The notes below the pieces were generated by a model, which searched no databases, was not told the origin of the DNA, and saw only the letters and a program-made list of their open reading frames with translations. Positions 19,492-64,000 of a stretch of DNA of 64,000 nt are shown here, in pieces (position 1 is the stretch's first letter; every line of letters starts with the position of its first letter). The stretch comes from Yuukianura sp. NJ FZ-2021. Taxonomy: Eukaryota. The translations under genes and the position numbers were made by a program. The stretch is taken from the NCBI GenBank assembly GCA_046563655.1, contig CM102283.1, positions 1,240,001-1,304,000 on the forward strand, in the 5' to 3' direction.

Positions 19492-21792
19492 TTAAATTCG
19501 AGTGGGTATGGATTGGGGAAAGTAGAAAAAGTTGGCGGGATCGTACTTCCGTTTGATGCGTACCAACTTTTCTACGTGTTGGCCATAGTACCTTTCCAAA
19601 TAATCGGGAAGGTCTCCATCTATGTCGTTTTGGTAGGACTCTGTACTACCGAATGTATTTACTCCAAAGTCGAAGAATTTCTGGACATAGCCAACTCCAA
19701 TGGCGTCCTCGGTAGGAGTAGGCGATGGATTCATGTATGTAGCTATGGCACAGTACAGAGTTGGCCCTCTATGAACGAACGCCGTTTCATTGATCCCGAT
19801 TGACCTTACTGCTCCACCAGAACCATCCAGAAAGACGTTCACTGTACTCGGCATTTCTTGCAATAAAGTTTGAAACTGGGCTAGCCCCTCATCTCCAATG
19901 ATTTGTTGTACATAAAAGGACTTGGGTTTCATGTAGACAACATTGTCTGATGAACGGTTGATTTTGAGCATATCCGGAGGTGTGTTGAGTTCCTGTGTGG
20001 TCTGTGCATTCAGCATTCCTTCGGTATGAATTTAAAGCAAAATTAATGCTAACGCAGTAGTAATGTTAATACTTGAAAGAAAATTAATAAAATGTAGTCG
20101 TTGTATATGTTTTTTACAAACCTGGAAATTTTGCCCAGTATAAAATATACTCTGGATAGGTACGAAATGACTCAGTGACAGACATTGGTTGCGGTAGTAG
20201 AGGCCGGAATTTTTCAAAATTTTCAGAAGTACCGCTCACATCAGTGAATCTCAGTAAAAAATCAGCGCTGTTTGGGATTATTACTTTGGTTGTTACATTG
20301 CTTGTCTTGTCTTCCTCGTTAAGAAAATTTTGCCAAACATCTAGCACTGCTGCCAATTGCTCCGTGGTAAACATTACGATGGCTTCATAAACGATAGGTG
20401 GAGTTGGATGCGTTCGGAACAAGTATTGTGTTGCGATGCCAAATGAAACTGCTCCACCACCGCGCATTGCCCAATACAAATCTAGATGTTTAGGCAAAAA
20501 ATTAATAACTTTTATTAAATGTTTATAAGCTCAGTGAGGTTAGATTTTTCAATAAGCTCTTGATTTTCTCAAAATCAAATGGTTTTCATTTTTAAATTTA
20601 AACCATTCACGGATGATACCCTTTTTCTTGATAACCAGGGATGTCAAATATATTTAGTCTAAATGTCCGTAATGTGAAAAAAAACATTTGTGGGTTTTCG
20701 TATCCAAATATTTATTTGCCCATGCCCATTTGCCCATATATTTTAAATCTGAATTAAATTTAAAAAAGAAATATTTTTTTTGTCAATATTTCGGGAGTTT
20801 TTAGGACATATTTTTGACATCCCTGTATAATTTATTCACAGAGACAAAAAAAATTGTTTTGTGACCTTGTTTATTGTAAATACAAAATTTTACCTTGGTG
20901 CTCGTCGGAATTGGCCCGAACAACTTCGCCATTAGCCAGGACAACCCGTATTTGTAAAATGTTGTCCAATGCGGCTCCATAGGTGCCTTCAAAGGCCCCC
21001 AGCCCTCCGCCAAGCACAGTTGAAATACCCACGGCCGGACAGTTTGTCACGGGAACAAGCACCTTCAGCCAAATTTTTGTGCTTTAGCGAAACCATGTTT
21101 ATCTTCTTATTTTTTATATCAGATTTGCAATCTTTTAATATTGAGAGGCTCTTAAAGTTTTTTTTAAAGTCACTTTATTTCTTTAAAAAAAACTGGAACG
21201 AAAGAAAAAATATGGGTGAAAAACGGCTATTTCTAGGCAAATTTAAGCCTTTTATTAAAAAGCCAATTGGCGCCTATTTTCCAAAATATAAAAAATTTAA
21301 TAAATTGTTAACTTCCCTTACCTCAGAATCGGCCCACAGTTGATACGTAAGTGGTGCGTTGAGGTTCCCTGGACCAATAATAGCCGTTTCCTCGACGCTG
21401 TTGACCTTGACCTCATTCAAAAGTCGGAGGTCAATCACAACACTGGAGTTATCTCCATATGAATACTTTTCAAAAGAATGACCACCGCTTTTCGGGACGA
21501 CTCGAACTTTCAATGATTTACAACAACGAACGGTTGCTGCTACGTGTGATTCAGTTTGTGGAATAACAAATGCAAATGGGTTAATGGTGCTTGGTTTCAG
21601 TTGCCAATGTTGATTAAATTCTGCATATCGAGCGTCGTTCCGAAATACGACTGCCGAATTGGGTATACCAAACGCAGCAAAACATTTTTTCAAAACTTCC
21701 ATATTCAAATTTTCCAGTTGAAGGCTGGAGACGTGGAGTGTGAAAAACACTACGATAGAAAACACAACCAATGTTTTCATGGTAGTAGCCAT
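19492..21792 (-). CDS. Secreted berberine-bridge-enzyme-like FAD-linked oxidoreductase, copy A (exons 21792-21322, 21062-20894, 20481-20122, 20018-19492; ~508 aa)
   Basis: Signal peptide; PKSGGHSFE FAD-His motif; VIDL; NCPAVG second flavinylation Cys; DLYWAMRGGG..FGI; C-terminal YQN..D...YYG..L..IKRKYDP.NFF BBE domain. GT-AG introns keep the frame. Confidence 0.9.
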
Positions 21793-22741
21793 GGTCAAAA
21801 CAAAGTTTAAACTTTTAATTTAAAAAAAATTAAATATGATGTGCACTAAATAAGAATATTCTACTCGTTCACTTCAACTTCTTTGCGATCTTTTGAAATT
21901 TCAATTAGTAATGGCATTTGGAGTCTGTTGTGGATAGAAAGTAAATTGCGAAAAGAAACTGAGAAGATTGTAATTTATATACTCGAATATTGTACAGTTA
22001 GGTTCGAAACAGTCTCTTAAACTAGGCGTTATGGTAAGGGCTCTTTCATAGGAAGTCAAGGTCAGAAAAAGGTGAGATGTATTCAAGGGCACCTAGTCAT
22101 TCTAGAGCCCTTGATTAAGGGACCCTGACCTCTATTCAAAGGCCAGGGTTATCAGCATGACGCATATGTCAAAGTCGTCTCGCACTTATCAATTTCAGAA
22201 ATAAAAAGCCTAGTAATTTAACACAATTCCAACAAAGTTGGAACATCGCGGTTTCATAATGCTAGACTGTTTTTAATTAAAAAAAATATTAATAATGAAT
22301 AATAAACGATTATGTGTATATGTTATAATAAGCTTATTAATTACTCCCAATTTGCCGTTTTAGCGCTATAACTTATTTCTCCGAAAAATAAAAAACAAGA
22401 AATAGAACCATCCATTTATTTGATGAGTAAAGGAATCGGGTTTCAGAAGGAAGAAATGTAATTTCGATACGAACATTAAACTTAAGTTAGTTTTTTTTTG
22501 GGCGTTTTTTTGAGCAGTTTTGAGCTGACAATGAAATGAACTGAAATGGATTAAACGAAATAGTATTGCCGTATTCAAGTGATAATTTTATTTTAATATT
22601 CCATGGACAAAGTTTTTATTATGTGTAAAAGATGATTAGTGATTTCTCAATTAACTAGAGAGTAATGAAGGAAAGATGGAAACATAAATACTTTAAGCAA
22701 TCCTAAACACTAAGCATACTAGTGTATTAGTTTATGCTTGT

Positions 22742-61171: not shown

Positions 61172-62800
61172 TTCAACACAAAATCTAAATGCAATTTAAA
61201 CGAATAAATCGATTTGTGCAATTAAAAAAATCGGTCTTATTAAAAAATAAATCCTCAAGCACTTTTGGTCAAATAAATCTTATTAGATTGGCACCAGCAA
61301 ACTTTTTTTTTGTGAAAACGTGATTCCGTAGATGTGAATTAAACTTCACATGAACGGCTCAGTAAAACCCAACAAAACGTAATCGAATCATTCTTGAGAA
61401 CATTTTGTTGTCGTCAAGACGCGCACCGATAGAGTATAACTATTCGAATACGAATATTCGAATACGAAGCCCTCTTTTTGGGACCTTCGAAATCCGAATA
61501 CCAATTCGAAGTATTCGAATAATTCTGCGGGAATACAATCTGGAGGAGAGGTTTGAAATATTTACTATACGTGTGCATTGTAACTGGCACAGTTTACAAT
61601 CTGTCTCACTCTGTTTTAAAAATTACAGTCTGTTTTGATTACTTTTACGTAATTAAATTAACAATTGTAATTATCAGAGTCTCAAAAAATATTTTCTATA
61701 AACTACCGAAATTATTTATATACATGTTTACTAAAAAAAACTGGCAAAATATTTGCTGAAATATTTAGTGAAAACAACGTTTCTGAAAATCACTGCAGTT
61801 AGACTCCCAAAAACATACAAATCATAAGGTTTAACCTTATAATTCTTACTCGAACCTTTAATTTGTGCTGTCGATAGACACTGGAAGTAATTTCCGGTAC
61901 AAATTTATACCCAATTTTTTTTAGTAAATCCGTTGGAATTTGGTAAGTAATTTCGGCGACTTCTTTACAAAAATCTTACCTGAAATAGTATGGTCATCGT
62001 TTTCTAGGACACCTCATACCGAAAAATATTCGTTTTTGGCCAAAATTTGGCTCAATAACTACAATTTTCTCAAAAACCCCCAAATATTTAGTAAATATTT
62101 CTTATTTTCAAAAATATTTATAAAAATTAATATTTAAAATATTGATAAAAAATATTTTTTGGGACTCTGGTAATTATAAAGAGACAATGAGTAAAGAGCA
62201 TAATAATTCAAAGAAATTGGTGGATTTAAGGTTTACCGATGTCCAAAGTAAAAGTTCGGACACTACATCAATTTGGCACATCAAAATAGGTGGAAGTATC
62301 TGGCAATATCAGTATCCACTTCTATCCAGCCATTTCTTCCGGATAAAACCGAATGAACTATACTATCCACTGGATGTCCACTGGACAAAACGTCAAAAAA
62401 TTGATATCCAGCAACTCTGTCTAATACCTCTCAGAATGGATGACACTTGACATTAAAAAAAACTTGACACGTAGTCCAATTGATTTTTTTTATCGAAATT
62501 TAGTCTGGGTAGACTAATCTATTTGTTCAAAGTTCACTCAAATTAGACCGTTTCAGTGCCTCAACTTTAACAATTTGTATGCAACCTATACTAAAGTGTG
62601 GAAAAGGAAAACAATAATCTTGTGGGATACTGATATGACAGGAATTCTCATAAGAGTTCAATATCACAAGACCGATCTCACCAAGATCAAGGTCTCATGA
62701 CGTCGAAGAGCTCCGCGTTTTGACGAGTGTCACTTGATTTCACACACATTAGTTTGCAGCAAGGCCGGTTACTCCAACTCAAAAGTTGTTAAAATTGGCA

Positions 62801-64000
62801 ATGCAATTTGCCGCAATTGTGGTTGTTGTGATTTTGACCCAAGGATGTTGGGCTAGTGAGAGTGAGAGTGACTTTGCGGTGAAAACTGCTGCAGGGTACG
62901 TGAGAGGAATCAAGTCCACCTCACGAAATGGTGTCTCTTACACAGCATTTCGTGGCATTCAATACGGTGTACAAACGAAGAGATTTCAGGTGAAAATTTT
63001 GAGTCAGAAAATTTAATAATTTCAGAAAAAGTGAATTGGTTTAATTAAATTTTAGGAGGCTGAACCAGTTGAACGGTGGGAGGGAGTCAAGGACACTTTT
63101 GATTTTGGAAGTGACTGTGCACAGGCAAATGTTTACCGTGATACGGCAATAAGTTTGGAAGAAGACTGTTTGTTCCTCAACGTGTACGTTCCGGAAATCA
63201 AGGTAGTGCTAGGGTGGGAAATTTCAAAATTTTGAAAACTGAGATTTTCGAAATACAAAAGCAGTTTTAATATTTTAGGGCGGGAAGACCAAGAAGCCAG
63301 TAATCGTTTACATTCATGGTGGAGCATGGGCATGGGGAACTAGTCGACAAGTGGGAGAAAAATTCTTTATGGACAAAGACGTTGTTTTTGTTACCATAAA
63401 TTACAGAGTTGGACCGTTTGGTACGTAATTCCGAAAAAAAAGTTATAGTTAGGTATATTAATTAAATTAATTAATAGTATTAATTAATAAGTTAATAGTA
63501 TTTAGCTATATTTAGTCACAGAATTTTCTCTCAATATTTTCATGCCTTAATTTTCAAAAATGCGTTTTTTGAAATTCTTTAAAATTCATTTCAAAATTCT
63601 TTTAAAATTTTCTAAAAAGGATTTTTGGCGGTTAAAAATAACCGCAGAGCTCAGGGGAATGTTGCTTCACTTGATCAAATTATGGCGCTGGAATGGGTGC
63701 AAAAGAATATTCATAACTTTGGCGGTGATCCGAATCTAGTAACAATCATGGGAGAAAGTGCTGGTGCAGGTACGTATTTGGCCAGTTTTTTTTAAATAAA
63801 AATTCATGTAATTTCAAAAAAAGATTTTTGATTTTGTTTTTGAAATTTTCAAGGCTCTGTCGCCCATTTGCTTGTTTCACCTCTGTCGGAAGGTAAGTTT
63901 GGCTTGAGTCGGAATTTAACAAAAAAAAAAAGGTGTATTTTTTGTGTTTCCGAGTTTTCCGAAAATTCATTTAAACAAACATTAAATTTTTTTACAGGCA
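62801..64000 (+). CDS. Type-B carboxylesterase, 5' part (continues beyond the window)
   Basis: Signal peptide; [36 protein letters not shown]; same exon structure as 43860-46177. Confidence 0.9.

Follow-up and report, generated by a model that had tools for sequence, protein, structure and literature searches.

Among solved structures, the top match for a profile of close relatives of the BBE-like oxidases considered here is the moss protein PpBBE-like 1, which is reported as a cellobiose oxidase (PMC6001459). A precedent for transfer-derived genes that are sparsely spread over springtails, fungus gnats and mites is reported in PMC13389597, and the Alo peptide family has been described from springtails (PMC10051947). 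The window analyzed here is a stretch of 64,000 nucleotides from Yuukianura sp. NJ FZ-2021. With a probability of about 0.65, it represents a gene-family-rich segment of the genome of a springtail-like hexapod (a soil animal), in which independent tandem arrays of "environment-facing" genes are co-located because of duplication-prone neighbourhoods and not because of a shared pathway. On this reading, the BBE and PR ("pathogen-related") genes are old horizontal acquisitions that have long been domesticated; they are not specific to this locus but also occur in other springtails. The following features were resolved:

19492..21792, minus strand: BBE1, BBE-like FAD oxidase gene with 4 exons (21322-21792, 20894-21062, 20122-20481, 19492-20018), 508 aa
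22742..25311, minus strand: BBE2, tandem paralogue of BBE1 with 4 exons (24841-25311, 24327-24495, 23681-24040, 22742-23268), 508 aa
26022..28857, minus strand: IRa, divergent ionotropic-receptor-like gene (ORFs 27958-28857 and 26022-27743), with a short intron carrying a high-copy repeat
30188..31672, minus strand: multi-pass membrane protein gene, putatively GR-like; three hydrophobic ORFs, a single in-frame stop between two of them
34292..37249, minus strand: IRb, IR-like paralogue of IRa (ORFs 36200-37249 and 34292-35782)
38044..39656, plus strand: FLVCR/SLC49-type MFS transporter gene of ~5 exons; start at ~38044 placed by eye from the ORF translation, last exon ORF 38925-39656
39762..41664, no strand: duplicated unit of ~1.1 kb, packed with 28-49 bp minisatellites (self-BLAST, TRF)
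42489..43410, plus strand: PR1, NTF2/SnoaL-like fold, 2 exons (42489-42612, 42866-43410), 223 aa including the stop position
43809..46174, plus strand: CE1, multi-exon type-B carboxylesterase; matched in order along profile positions 4-472 by pieces of Pfam COesterase
46412..46741, plus strand: carboxylesterase fragment duplicating part of CE1 (90% identical to 45588-45866; COesterase E 0.01)
47582..48496, plus strand: PR2 (exons 47582-47702, 47952-48496)
49433..50331, plus strand: PR3 (exons 49433-49553, 49787-50331)
about 51912..52227, plus strand: PR gene fragment, 3' part only (self-BLAST; tblastn with the PR homologue P0001)
52605..53533, plus strand: PR4 (exons 52605-52725, 52989-53533)
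54311..55914, plus strand: CE2, internally deleted carboxylesterase copy with in-frame loss of the oxyanion-hole and catalytic-Ser exons
56628..61171, plus strand: Alo-type knottin gene; putative signal-peptide exon 56628-56702 (donor GTAATT), mature-peptide exon 61043-61171
57061..60738, plus strand: LINE retrotransposon; ORF1-like 57061-57873, endonuclease and reverse transcriptase ORF 57874-60738
62753..64000, plus strand: CE3, 5' part of a carboxylesterase with GESAG motif (COesterase pieces; 71% nucleotide identity to CE1), running past the window end

The two BBE-like oxidases proposed in the first-pass annotation were recovered, as Pfam found the FAD_binding_4 and BBE domains twice on the minus strand. 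All three introns of BBE2 are GT-AG. BBE1 was modelled at the borders homologous to those of BBE2, with its splice dinucleotides read by eye only, and its spliced frame is open over the full 508 aa. The two proteins are 89% identical (80-88% at the nucleotide level by self-BLAST), with a dN/dS of 0.22. Their N-terminus, MATTMKTLVVFSIVVFFTLHVSS, resembles a signal peptide as judged by eye rather than by a predictor, and the protein looks putatively secreted.

The PR array consists of four intact two-exon genes encoding 222-223 aa, in addition to the fragment. The dN/dS values were 0.14-0.21 for all six pairs, and the PR protein has no signal peptide. The AF2 model of PR1 (pLDDT 92) matched SnoaL-like and NTF2-like structures in Foldseek. 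The earlier description of four PR/SnoaL-like genes therefore holds for the gene number but only at the level of an NTF2-like fold, because the Pfam SnoaL profile was reached neither by the window PR ORF nor by four eukaryotic relatives (five of the seven proteins scanned). The one cyanobacterial relative scanned scored 27.4 bits, below the 28.4 cut-off. The PR genes probably encode cytosolic NTF2-fold proteins, which may act in small-molecule chemistry. The GC3 of the BBE and PR genes (0.41-0.52) was close to that of the IR, CE, and MFS pieces (0.46-0.51).

An exhaustive search with BBE gave 1718 matches at E<=1e-3, just 7 of them at E<=1e-30, with 55% identity for the top match. Thirty of the match clusters were looked up; eight had an organism name, and these were split evenly between arthropods (Folsomia candida twice, once under the annotation "Reticuline oxidase"; the mite Leptotrombidium; and the sciarid fly Pseudolycoriella hygida, where the gene lies on a 193-Mb scaffold) and early-diverging fungi (Conidiobolus, Entomophthora, Basidiobolus, and Acaulospora). 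In a careful IQ-TREE analysis of 37 rows from 81 long matches, rooted at the midpoint only, the window genes grouped with the locus L001 (100/99) within a 10-row clade (100/100). This clade was nested in a 23-row clade (96/88), where the only named members were F. candida and the sciarid fungus gnat. Fungi, entomophthoralean ones among them, and the mite formed the next branches outside, and the named bacteria and Acaulospora lay across the midpoint root. Because 22 of the 30 clusters are nameless and five unnamed rows of the 23-row clade fall outside its named subclades, including one from a 52% GC contig that may be microbial (L015), this clade possibly includes sequences that are not from arthropods, which makes any count or direction of the transfers tentative.

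For PR, 18 homologues were found. In the 22-row tree, also rooted at the midpoint only, the four window genes were monophyletic (100/100) inside a 12-row clade with the springtail Orchesella dallaii (100/99). This clade adjoined the glomeromycete Dentiscutata and an unnamed protein (P0009), and then the moss Sphagnum; glomeromycete records may carry contaminant contigs. Among prokaryote genomes, 464 of 569 candidate stretches encode PR relatives, the best 80 of which share 37-42% identity and are mostly from Nostocales. Together, the search matches, named taxa, and trees support the view that BBE and PR, which are missing from most animals, are families of fungal, plant, and bacterial type with a patchy occurrence in soil arthropods. 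An old, domesticated horizontal acquisition is the best reading, because of the introns, the host-like composition, the dN/dS of 0.14-0.22, the springtail relatives, and the tree positions; the source was probably fungi or other microbes, long ago. In this respect, the partly horizontal origin and the spliceosomal introns noted at first reading agree with our results.

Vertical descent with massive loss, by which BBE and PR would be ancient eukaryotic genes kept in springtails, sciarids, and mites, is unlikely. It would fit the occurrence of both families not only in bacteria but also in plants and fungi, the fact that every named row of the 23-row clade in the BBE tree is a hexapod, and the introns and host-like composition. 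However, very many independent metazoan losses would be needed, and the arthropods named as carriers belong to precisely those soil- and fungus-associated groups in which PMC13389597 reports a sparse sharing of transfer-derived genes. The PR clade, moreover, has a glomeromycete and a moss as neighbours instead of other animals. A further argument comes from the metagenome BBE loci, 18 of 22 of which belong to one record set. The contigs of this set have 37-44% GC, sparse ORFs, and animal-type neighbours (a 7tm_1 GPCR, a caspase, a split sugar transporter, and a carboxylesterase), which indicates an animal with many paralogues as the source. Nine of the 18 loci have an uninterrupted ORF of 443-564 aa, as expected for foreign or retroposed genes, and the introns of the window BBE genes therefore look lineage-specific.

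The products of the BBE genes are most likely oxidases that are secreted and bicovalently flavinylated. A profile built from the 10 closest full-length relatives had PpBBE-like 1 as its top solved match (322 bits), followed by THCA synthase (251). By eye, the residues kept in the window BBE proteins are the His and Cys that bind FAD bicovalently, Val as oxygen gatekeeper, and both members of the catalytic pair, a Tyr and an acidic residue. In contrast, the substrate-side residues W186, S422, and Q424 of PpBBE1 are not conserved, and exon 4 alone scored higher against two unnamed "flavin-dependent oxidase" structures (56.3 bits) than against PpBBE-like 1 (53.3), so that the assignment as a sugar oxidase is a class-level guess only. 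Such enzymes could use O2 to oxidize a sugar or an alcohol, releasing H2O2, and may help to digest plant or fungal wall material in the gut, act against microbes, or do both.

The remaining families are presumably ordinary arthropod genes. IRa and IRb share ~70% nucleotide identity over two stretches (self-BLAST). The language-model look-alikes of IRa were arthropod clusters (scores 0.91-0.97), of which several bear the name ionotropic receptor or have Lig_chan, and a weak match to GluA2 in the PDB (E about 0.035) covered the S1-M1 region; Pfam gave no match for the IR-like genes. These findings are compatible with the interleaved IR-like genes described earlier. For the ORFs at 30188-31672, Pfam gave only chance-level matches at E up to 0.1. 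Contig depth rises sharply at 27405-28071, within IRa. A 2059-bp contig of run X3 (record 18), one of the listed DNA runs, which are fragmentary unitigs, is ~94% identical to the window and covers 25120-27185, from BBE2 exon 1 into IRa, but it is not independent proof of this junction because it may share the sample of the assembly.

The MFS gene is real, although its "fungal-like" label is weakly supported. Its closest homologue (P0023, 50% identity) carries MFS_1, aligns across the window exons, and matches FLVCR2 at E 5.7e-35. The window ORF itself scored 45 bits against FLVCR2 vs 72-75 bits against Fusarium MFS proteins, and in Pfam reached MFS_1_like at E 0.089 at best. Judged from these sequences, it belongs to the FLVCR/SLC49 family, which is present in animals.

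Three carboxylesterase loci were present as first described, together with the extra fragment, but only CE1 is intact, with CE3 cut by the window end. CE1 has a signal peptide, the HGGG oxyanion motif, the GDSAG nucleophile motif, and the His motif. In CE2, the ORF 54311-54907 fuses the signal-peptide exon straight to the post-nucleophile exon, and positions 43989-44900 of CE1 are left unmatched when the two copies are aligned by self-BLAST. Self-BLAST made tandem duplication in the window clear: PR4 and CE2 duplicate the PR1 and CE1 block (42316-46184 vs 52431-55924).

The first-pass annotation had gone further and proposed a co-adapted, co-regulated defence or detoxification island, in which secreted oxidase, cyclase-like PR protein, transporter, and esterases act on the same metabolites like a tailoring module. 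This was not borne out and is quite unlikely. It is true that esterases and an antifungal peptide share 45 kb with two or three families of foreign type; PR and CE were duplicated as one block; polyketide cyclases and hydroxylases are among the fold matches of PR; and at L013, in another animal, a carboxylesterase follows a BBE paralogue ~3 kb downstream on the same strand. However, the 181 ORFs scanned in the window contained no PKS/NRPS synthase domain, as already noted at first reading. A stretch of 17 kb with IR and GR-like genes separates BBE from PR, which lies on the opposite strand, and as only BBE starts with a signal-peptide-like segment, the two would act in different compartments. 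The relative of the BBE clade that has been characterised best is a cellobiose oxidase and not an alkaloid or polyketide tailoring enzyme, PR falls short of SnoaL, the MFS protein is of FLVCR type, and CE2 has no catalytic Ser. Since arthropods have large families of both carboxylesterases and IRs, chance adjacency is likely, and functional coupling is probably absent. Still, two or three independently foreign-looking families in 35 kb and the L013 pairing leave room for non-random co-location.

Contamination or a chimeric assembly join as the source of the microbial-type genes is extremely improbable: the families are typical of microbes and the DNA runs fragmentary, but the GT-AG introns, the GC and GC3 matching those of neighbouring arthropod genes, the purifying selection on the paralogues, the interleaved LINE and IR-like genes, and the contig linking BBE2 and IRa, even if from the same sample, all argue against it.

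Between the MFS and PR genes, Pfam found nothing in the duplicated unit at 39762-41664; its long ORFs are of low complexity and were not counted as genes. The Alo-like peptide was confirmed: its mature exon was found by a Cys-pattern scan and matched Alo-3 in the PDB (E 0.01), with the stretch NGSQGNCC in common. The putative signal-peptide exon came from a scan for such exons upstream. The two Alo exons would belong to one gene, and the LINE, whose ORF matched RVT_1 (E 7e-31) and Exo_endo_phos (E 2e-10) in Pfam, lies within its putative intron.

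Sequence comparisons support an old horizontal acquisition, which would be common to springtails, of two gene families in the window: the tandem BBE-like oxidases (BBE1 and BBE2) and the "pathogen-related" proteins of the NTF2/SnoaL fold (PR1–PR4). The window DNA is eukaryotic, with ~35%–44% GC. Its source looks like a springtail-like hexapod on three grounds: one of its proteins has its best named relative in the springtail Orchesella dallaii (58% identity), the look-alikes of its receptor-like ORF are arthropod clusters, and it contains an Alo-type peptide as known from Collembola (PMC10051947). 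Pfam scans covered 46 ORFs of ≥90 aa at 19.4–64 kb, 85 ORFs of ≥62 aa at 1–19 kb, and 50 further ORFs. The gene inventory of the first-pass annotation was confirmed by Pfam, homology, and gene models, except that the genes it called "GR-like" had no Pfam match. None of the 85 ORFs at 1–19 kb matched a Pfam family, and the features identified in the rest of the window are as follows.

Features of the window (coordinates, strand, description)
19492–21792, minus strand: BBE1, BBE-like oxidase gene (Pfam and self-BLAST)
22742–25311, minus strand: BBE2, BBE-like oxidase gene (Pfam and self-BLAST)
26022–28857, minus strand: IRa, divergent ionotropic-receptor-like gene
30188–31672, minus strand: unverified multi-pass membrane gene
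34292–37249, minus strand: IRb, divergent ionotropic-receptor-like gene
about 38044–39656, plus strand: MFS, FLVCR/SLC49-type transporter gene
39762–41664, no strand: minisatellite-rich duplicated repeat
42489–43410, plus strand: PR1, "pathogen-related" gene
43809–46174, plus strand: CE1, carboxylesterase gene
46412–46741, plus strand: carboxylesterase fragment
47582–48496, plus strand: PR2, "pathogen-related" gene
49433–50331, plus strand: PR3, "pathogen-related" gene
51912–52227, plus strand: PR fragment
52605–53533, plus strand: PR4, "pathogen-related" gene
54311–55914, plus strand: CE2, carboxylesterase gene
57061–60738, plus strand: LINE
61043–61171, plus strand: mature-peptide exon of Alo, antifungal-type knottin gene
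62753 to window end, plus strand: CE3, carboxylesterase gene

BBE1 and BBE2 each consist of four exons and encode 508-aa proteins that are 89% identical to each other; all three introns of BBE2 have GT-AG boundaries. Both proteins show the architecture of the family, with an N-terminal FAD_binding_4 domain (PF01565; E-values of 1e-13 and 4.5e-14) and a C-terminal BBE domain (PF08031; 6.6e-16 and 6.2e-17); each of these four matches passes its curated cut-off. The pairwise dN/dS of BBE1 and BBE2 was 0.22, and that of the PR genes was 0.14–0.21 for all six pairs. The GC3 of the BBE and PR genes (0.41–0.52) was within or near that of the IR, CE, and MFS pieces (0.46–0.51). The DNA contigs over the window are short and polymorphic, and the only evidence taken from them here, setting aside depth and uncovered parts, was a 2-kb bridge: a contig of 2059 bp from run X3, ~94% identical to the window at 25120–27185 and possibly derived from the sample that was also assembled, joins exon 1 of BBE2 to IRa. 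Because the dN/dS values indicate purifying selection, the GC3 is host-like, and the X3 contig bridges BBE2 and IRa, recent transfer of the BBE and PR genes is unlikely, and contamination as their source is very unlikely.

A word-indexed search with BBE yielded four relatives among 618 candidates, with Phycisphaerales and Brevibacillus as bacterial names. The exhaustive search, in which the 179 aa of exon 4 served as query, found 1718 proteins at E ≤ 1e-3; 241 of these remained at a threshold of E ≤ 1e-10, and 7 at one of E ≤ 1e-30. The best match was 55% identical. An organism name was available for 8 of the 30 best clusters that were looked up. The named hexapods were Folsomia candida (twice; OXA46775.1, annotated as "Reticuline oxidase", and OXA45260.1, "6-hydroxy-D-nicotine oxidase") and the sciarid fungus gnat Pseudolycoriella hygida ("Berberine bridge enzyme-like 25"). 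The other named holders were the mite Leptotrombidium deliense and the fungi Conidiobolus coronatus, Entomophthora muscae, Basidiobolus ranarum, and Acaulospora colombiana. This is the same sparse springtail, fungus-gnat, and mite pattern as that described in a 2026 study for another transfer-derived gene (PMC13389597).

The phylogeny was built with FastTree from all 81 hits of 330–700 aa, and more carefully with IQ-TREE from 37 rows (all named rows, the nearest relatives of the window genes, and a few bacterial-type rows); the two topologies agree. In the IQ-TREE tree, the window genes grouped with the metagenome locus L001 (paired branch supports of 100/99) within a 10-row clade (100/100). 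The latter was nested in a 23-row clade (96/88), where the only named members were from F. candida and the sciarid. The next branches were the mite, the three entomophthoralean/basidiobolean fungi, and the unnamed row P0098; Acaulospora and the named bacteria were placed on the other side of the midpoint root. Within the 23-row clade, five rows without a name lie outside the named subclades, and the one from a contig of 52% GC could be microbial. The F. candida and P. hygida genes share the 23-row clade with the window genes and are likewise arthropod-encoded, on large scaffolds (4.4 Mb and 3.5 Mb for F. candida; 193 Mb for P. hygida), but they are just 32%–36% identical to exon 4 of the window. 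Unlike them, the window genes belong to the separate 10-row subclade, together with many paralogues from a metagenome animal.

A scan of metagenome contigs revealed 22 BBE loci, 18 of them from a single record set. The contigs of this set have 37%–44% GC and few ORFs, and the neighbouring genes encode a rhodopsin-type GPCR, a caspase, a split sugar transporter, a glycosyltransferase, and a carboxylesterase; because of these properties, the source of the set is an animal that carries many BBE paralogues. At least 17–18 BBE-like loci in animal-type context (L001–L014, L016, L017, L021, and L022) in this one record set imply a large expansion of BBE oxidases in that animal. In 9 of the 18 loci, the BBE gene is a single uninterrupted ORF of 443–564 aa. 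Therefore, the three introns of the window BBE genes are not common to their closest relatives.

When the ten closest relatives of full length were combined into a profile and compared with the PDB, the moss PpBBE-like 1 ranked first (E 4e-95, 322 bits), followed by THCA synthase (251 bits). Exon 4 alone scored 53 bits against PpBBE-like 1 and slightly higher against two unnamed structures of "flavin-dependent oxidase". The window proteins share the FAD_binding_4 and BBE architecture, as well as the secreted type, with PpBBE-like 1 (Physcomitrium patens, PDB 6eo4) and with the fungal oligosaccharide oxidases GOOX and ChitO. At the gatekeeper position for oxygen reactivity, Val is characteristic of oxidases and Leu of dehydrogenases. 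In the structural report (PMC6001459), PpBBE1 is described as a cellobiose oxidase whose FAD is bound bicovalently at H111 and C172, with V175 as the gatekeeper and Y461 and D396 as the catalytic residues. All five of these key residues are kept in the window proteins when aligned by eye: the His of SGGHSF (GGHS motif) and the Cys of NCPAVG (CPxVG motif) align with H111 and C172, which concerns the residues for bicovalent FAD only; the Val of CPAVG aligns with V175; and the catalytic Tyr (SYQNE) and its acidic partner Asp (FLDGAGG) are retained. The differences from PpBBE-like 1 are the animal host, the three introns, and, again by eye, the replacement of the substrate-side W186, S422, and Q424 by Leu, Leu, and Ile. 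Because of the profile match to PpBBE1 and the five conserved residues, we infer that the window BBE proteins may be secreted, O2-using, and H2O2-producing oxidases that act on a sugar or an alcohol. If their substrates are wall-derived oligosaccharides, soil detritivores would have a new source of H2O2, encoded by the animal itself, in the gut or on the cuticle.

PR1–PR4 have two exons each and encode proteins of 222–223 aa that lack a signal peptide, as judged by eye. The search with these proteins gave 18 relatives among 65 candidates (E 1e-27 to 4e-80). Eight of the 18 (41%–67% identity) are without name or organism, and P0009 (43%) is labelled just "hypothetical protein". The named relatives are from Orchesella dallaii (58%), the glomeromycete Dentiscutata (47%), Sphagnum (44%), Lachancea yeasts, and cyanobacteria. 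In the tree of these 18 hits and the four window genes (22 rows), the window genes were monophyletic (100/100) and formed part of a clade of 12 rows that also contains O. dallaii (100/99); the next to branch were Dentiscutata and P0009, followed by Sphagnum. Among prokaryotes, 569 candidate genome stretches were compared, and 464 of them encode PR relatives. The best 80 of these 464 are 37%–42% identical and come mostly from Nostocales, with the rest including a myxobacterium, two actinobacteria, and an Acetobacteraceae MAG.

The window proteins are full-length homologues of the plant, fungal, and cyanobacterial "pathogen-related protein" family, 36%–58% identical to those of its members that are named; the WRHWG motif is invariant, with R117, H118, W119, and G120 unchanged throughout the 22-row alignment. 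The family label comes from the O. dallaii protein; the cyanobacterial members are called SnoaL-like polyketide cyclase. The term "SnoaL-like", which the first-pass annotation had also used, was not borne out at the Pfam level. SnoaL (PF07366) was not matched at E up to 10 by the window PR ORF and four eukaryotic relatives among the seven proteins scanned, and one cyanobacterial relative scored 27.4 bits, below the cut-off of 28.4. The PR ORFs of the window had no match to other Pfam families either. The resemblance lies in the NTF2-like fold only. The AF2 model (pLDDT 92.0, pTM 0.84) is an NTF2-like alpha+beta cone, and Foldseek found 225 matches in the PDB at E ≤ 0.001. The top ones, with target-normalised TM-scores of 0.53–0.67, were SnoaL-like cyclases, SnoaL2/AclR, ChaU, IdmH, and ketosteroid isomerases. 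The solved cyclases are ~10% identical to the PR model, with query-normalised TM-scores of 0.44–0.53.

Springtails are already rich in horizontally acquired genes. Two reports describe 809 foreign genes in F. candida (PMC5490193) and horizontally acquired beta-lactam genes in springtails (PMC5200902). As in these cases, foreign-type genes in the window lie among native ones in a soil hexapod, and the locus adds BBE-like oxidases and NTF2-fold PR proteins to the known set. Neither family is named in the main text of PMC5490193 or in the searchable supplements of PMC5490193 and PMC4987106; these supplements were covered in part, and their foreign-gene lists may still name BBE or PR. Within the springtail literature found, with the supplements partly covered, there was no discussion of BBE-like oxidases or NTF2-fold PR proteins.

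The first-pass annotation had interpreted the locus as a partly horizontally acquired defence or detoxification island with the tailoring parts of a secondary-metabolite cluster. Horizontal acquisition stands, as an old and springtail-wide event, whereas a biosynthetic or defence cluster is not supported: no synthase was found in the window, and the arrays are separated. As that annotation had also stated for PKS/NRPS, no PKS, NRPS, or terpene synthase domain was present among the 46, 85, and 50 window ORFs scanned, so the combination that defines such a cluster, a core synthase with contiguous tailoring and transport genes, was not found in the window. The proximity of two or three foreign-type families within 35 kb would favour some non-random association, but the BBE and PR genes are on opposite strands and 17 kb apart, and the supposed tailoring genes are interrupted by receptor genes. 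The BBE and PR proteins probably reside in different compartments, and the BBE affinities are with carbohydrate oxidases. One of the esterases, CE2, would be catalytically dead by exon loss. The joint duplication of PR and CE would also favour some association: PR1–CE1 and PR4–CE2 are duplicate copies of a single two-gene unit (self-BLAST). In another animal, BBE paralogues adjoin a carboxylesterase on the same strand (L013, 7–426 and 3616–4910) and lie near a weak IR-like match (L016, 18–257 and 1082–1438; E 8e-5, 19% identity). These adjacencies were given little weight because carboxylesterases and IRs are large arthropod families. From what is seen so far, the locus does not represent a new type of biosynthetic cluster in animals. 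A wider scenario combines a fungal-derived BBE family that moved among soil and fungus-feeding arthropods (springtails, sciarids, and perhaps mites), expanded in one animal to at least ~17 copies, and acquired introns in the lineage of the window, with a co-regulated anti-fungal or detoxification island that includes PR, esterases, transporter, and knottin. Taken as a whole, this scenario is improbable.

The transporter gene has ~5 exons, as deduced from the alignment with its closest homologue P0023 (492 aa, 50% identical to the window exon), which contains MFS_1 (PF07690). The window MFS ORF alone matched best to MFS_1_like in Pfam (E 0.089). P0023 aligns over its full length with human FLVCR2 (E 5.7e-35), and the last window exon aligns with FLVCR2 residues 259–487 (E 9e-11, 45 bits); via P0023, the gene belongs to the FLVCR/SLC49-type transporters, which include the choline/heme transporters FLVCR1/2. 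The last exon scored higher against two Fusarium permeases (72–75 bits) than against human FLVCR2. The highest-ranking cluster in the Atlas is eukaryotic, and two of its members are named as Ascomycota. A fungal origin is thus possible for this gene as far as its sequence goes. The "fungal-like MFS" was nevertheless rejected as evidence of transfer, since the word-indexed search scored just 8000 candidates, and arthropod FLVCR-like proteins lay outside the comparison.

The esterases are type-B carboxylesterases (PF00135), with GDSAG in CE1, GESAG in CE3, and the COesterase pieces in order. All catalytic motifs are present in CE1, CE3 is incomplete as it runs into the window end, and CE2 lacks GxSxG because its oxyanion-hole and nucleophile exons are deleted. 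At 54311–54907, ~900 bp are lost from CE2 relative to CE1, including the catalytic-Ser exon; the reading frame is open across the deletion and forms a 199-aa ORF.

The Alo ORF contains the six-Cys knottin framework. With its 43-aa mature part as query, the PDB match was Alo-3 (1q3j; E 0.01, 19.5 bits); the whole 65-aa ORF had no PDB match, and in Pfam it matched no antifungal-peptide family and only CBP at chance level (E 0.043). The likeness to Alo-3 and to collembolan Alo consists of six Cys in knottin order and, for Alo-3, the shared stretch NGSQGNCC. Alo peptides have been described in Collembola with the motif C-6-C-7..9-CC-3-C-10-C (PMC10051947), and the spacing in the window, C-6-C-9-CC-4-C-11-C, is one residue off this motif in two loops. 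The mature exon begins exactly at an acceptor site, and at 56628–56702, upstream of the LINE, there is a typical putative signal-peptide exon whose donor is GTAATT. Like the known Alo peptides, the Alo precursor may therefore be encoded by two exons and carry a signal peptide; the LINE in the putative intron would be a difference from them. This LINE looks full-length, with an endonuclease and RT ORF of 954 aa.

The IR ORFs matched neither Lig_chan (PF00060) nor other Pfam families. Their look-alikes in the Atlas are arthropod clusters (0.91–0.97), some named ionotropic receptor and with Lig_chan on 12%–70% of members, and GluA2 in the PDB gave a weak match in the pre-M1/M1 region (E 0.035). 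The three hydrophobic ORFs at 30188–31672 lacked the gustatory-receptor families 7tm_7 and Trehalose_recp (Pfam, E up to 0.1). Two of the "GR-like" ORFs, at 30773–31672, are in one frame with a single stop codon between them, which could reflect a very short intron, a pseudogene, or read-through. Contig depth was in the thousands at 27744–27957 and 29406–30072, compared with tens to hundreds elsewhere. This pile-up, together with the many joints and loose ends there, suggests two high-copy repeats, one within the IRa intron and one in the interval that separates IRa from the membrane-protein gene.

Other repeats were observed in the window. Direct repeats of 1.43 kb at 9283–10714 and 16640–18072, 97.5% identical and ~7.4 kb apart, resemble retroelement LTRs, and the ORFs between them had no Pfam family match. 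The region 39762–41664 is a duplicated unit of ~1.1 kb with a high density of minisatellites of 28, 44, and 49 bp (TGTCACC-type and G-rich); the long plus-strand ORFs at 39791–41664 were rejected as genes, being low-complexity translations of these minisatellites. Finally, self-BLAST revealed a dispersed repeat of ~230 bp (75% identity), with one copy adjoining IRb (37208–37441) and the other adjoining the carboxylesterase fragment (46744–46967).
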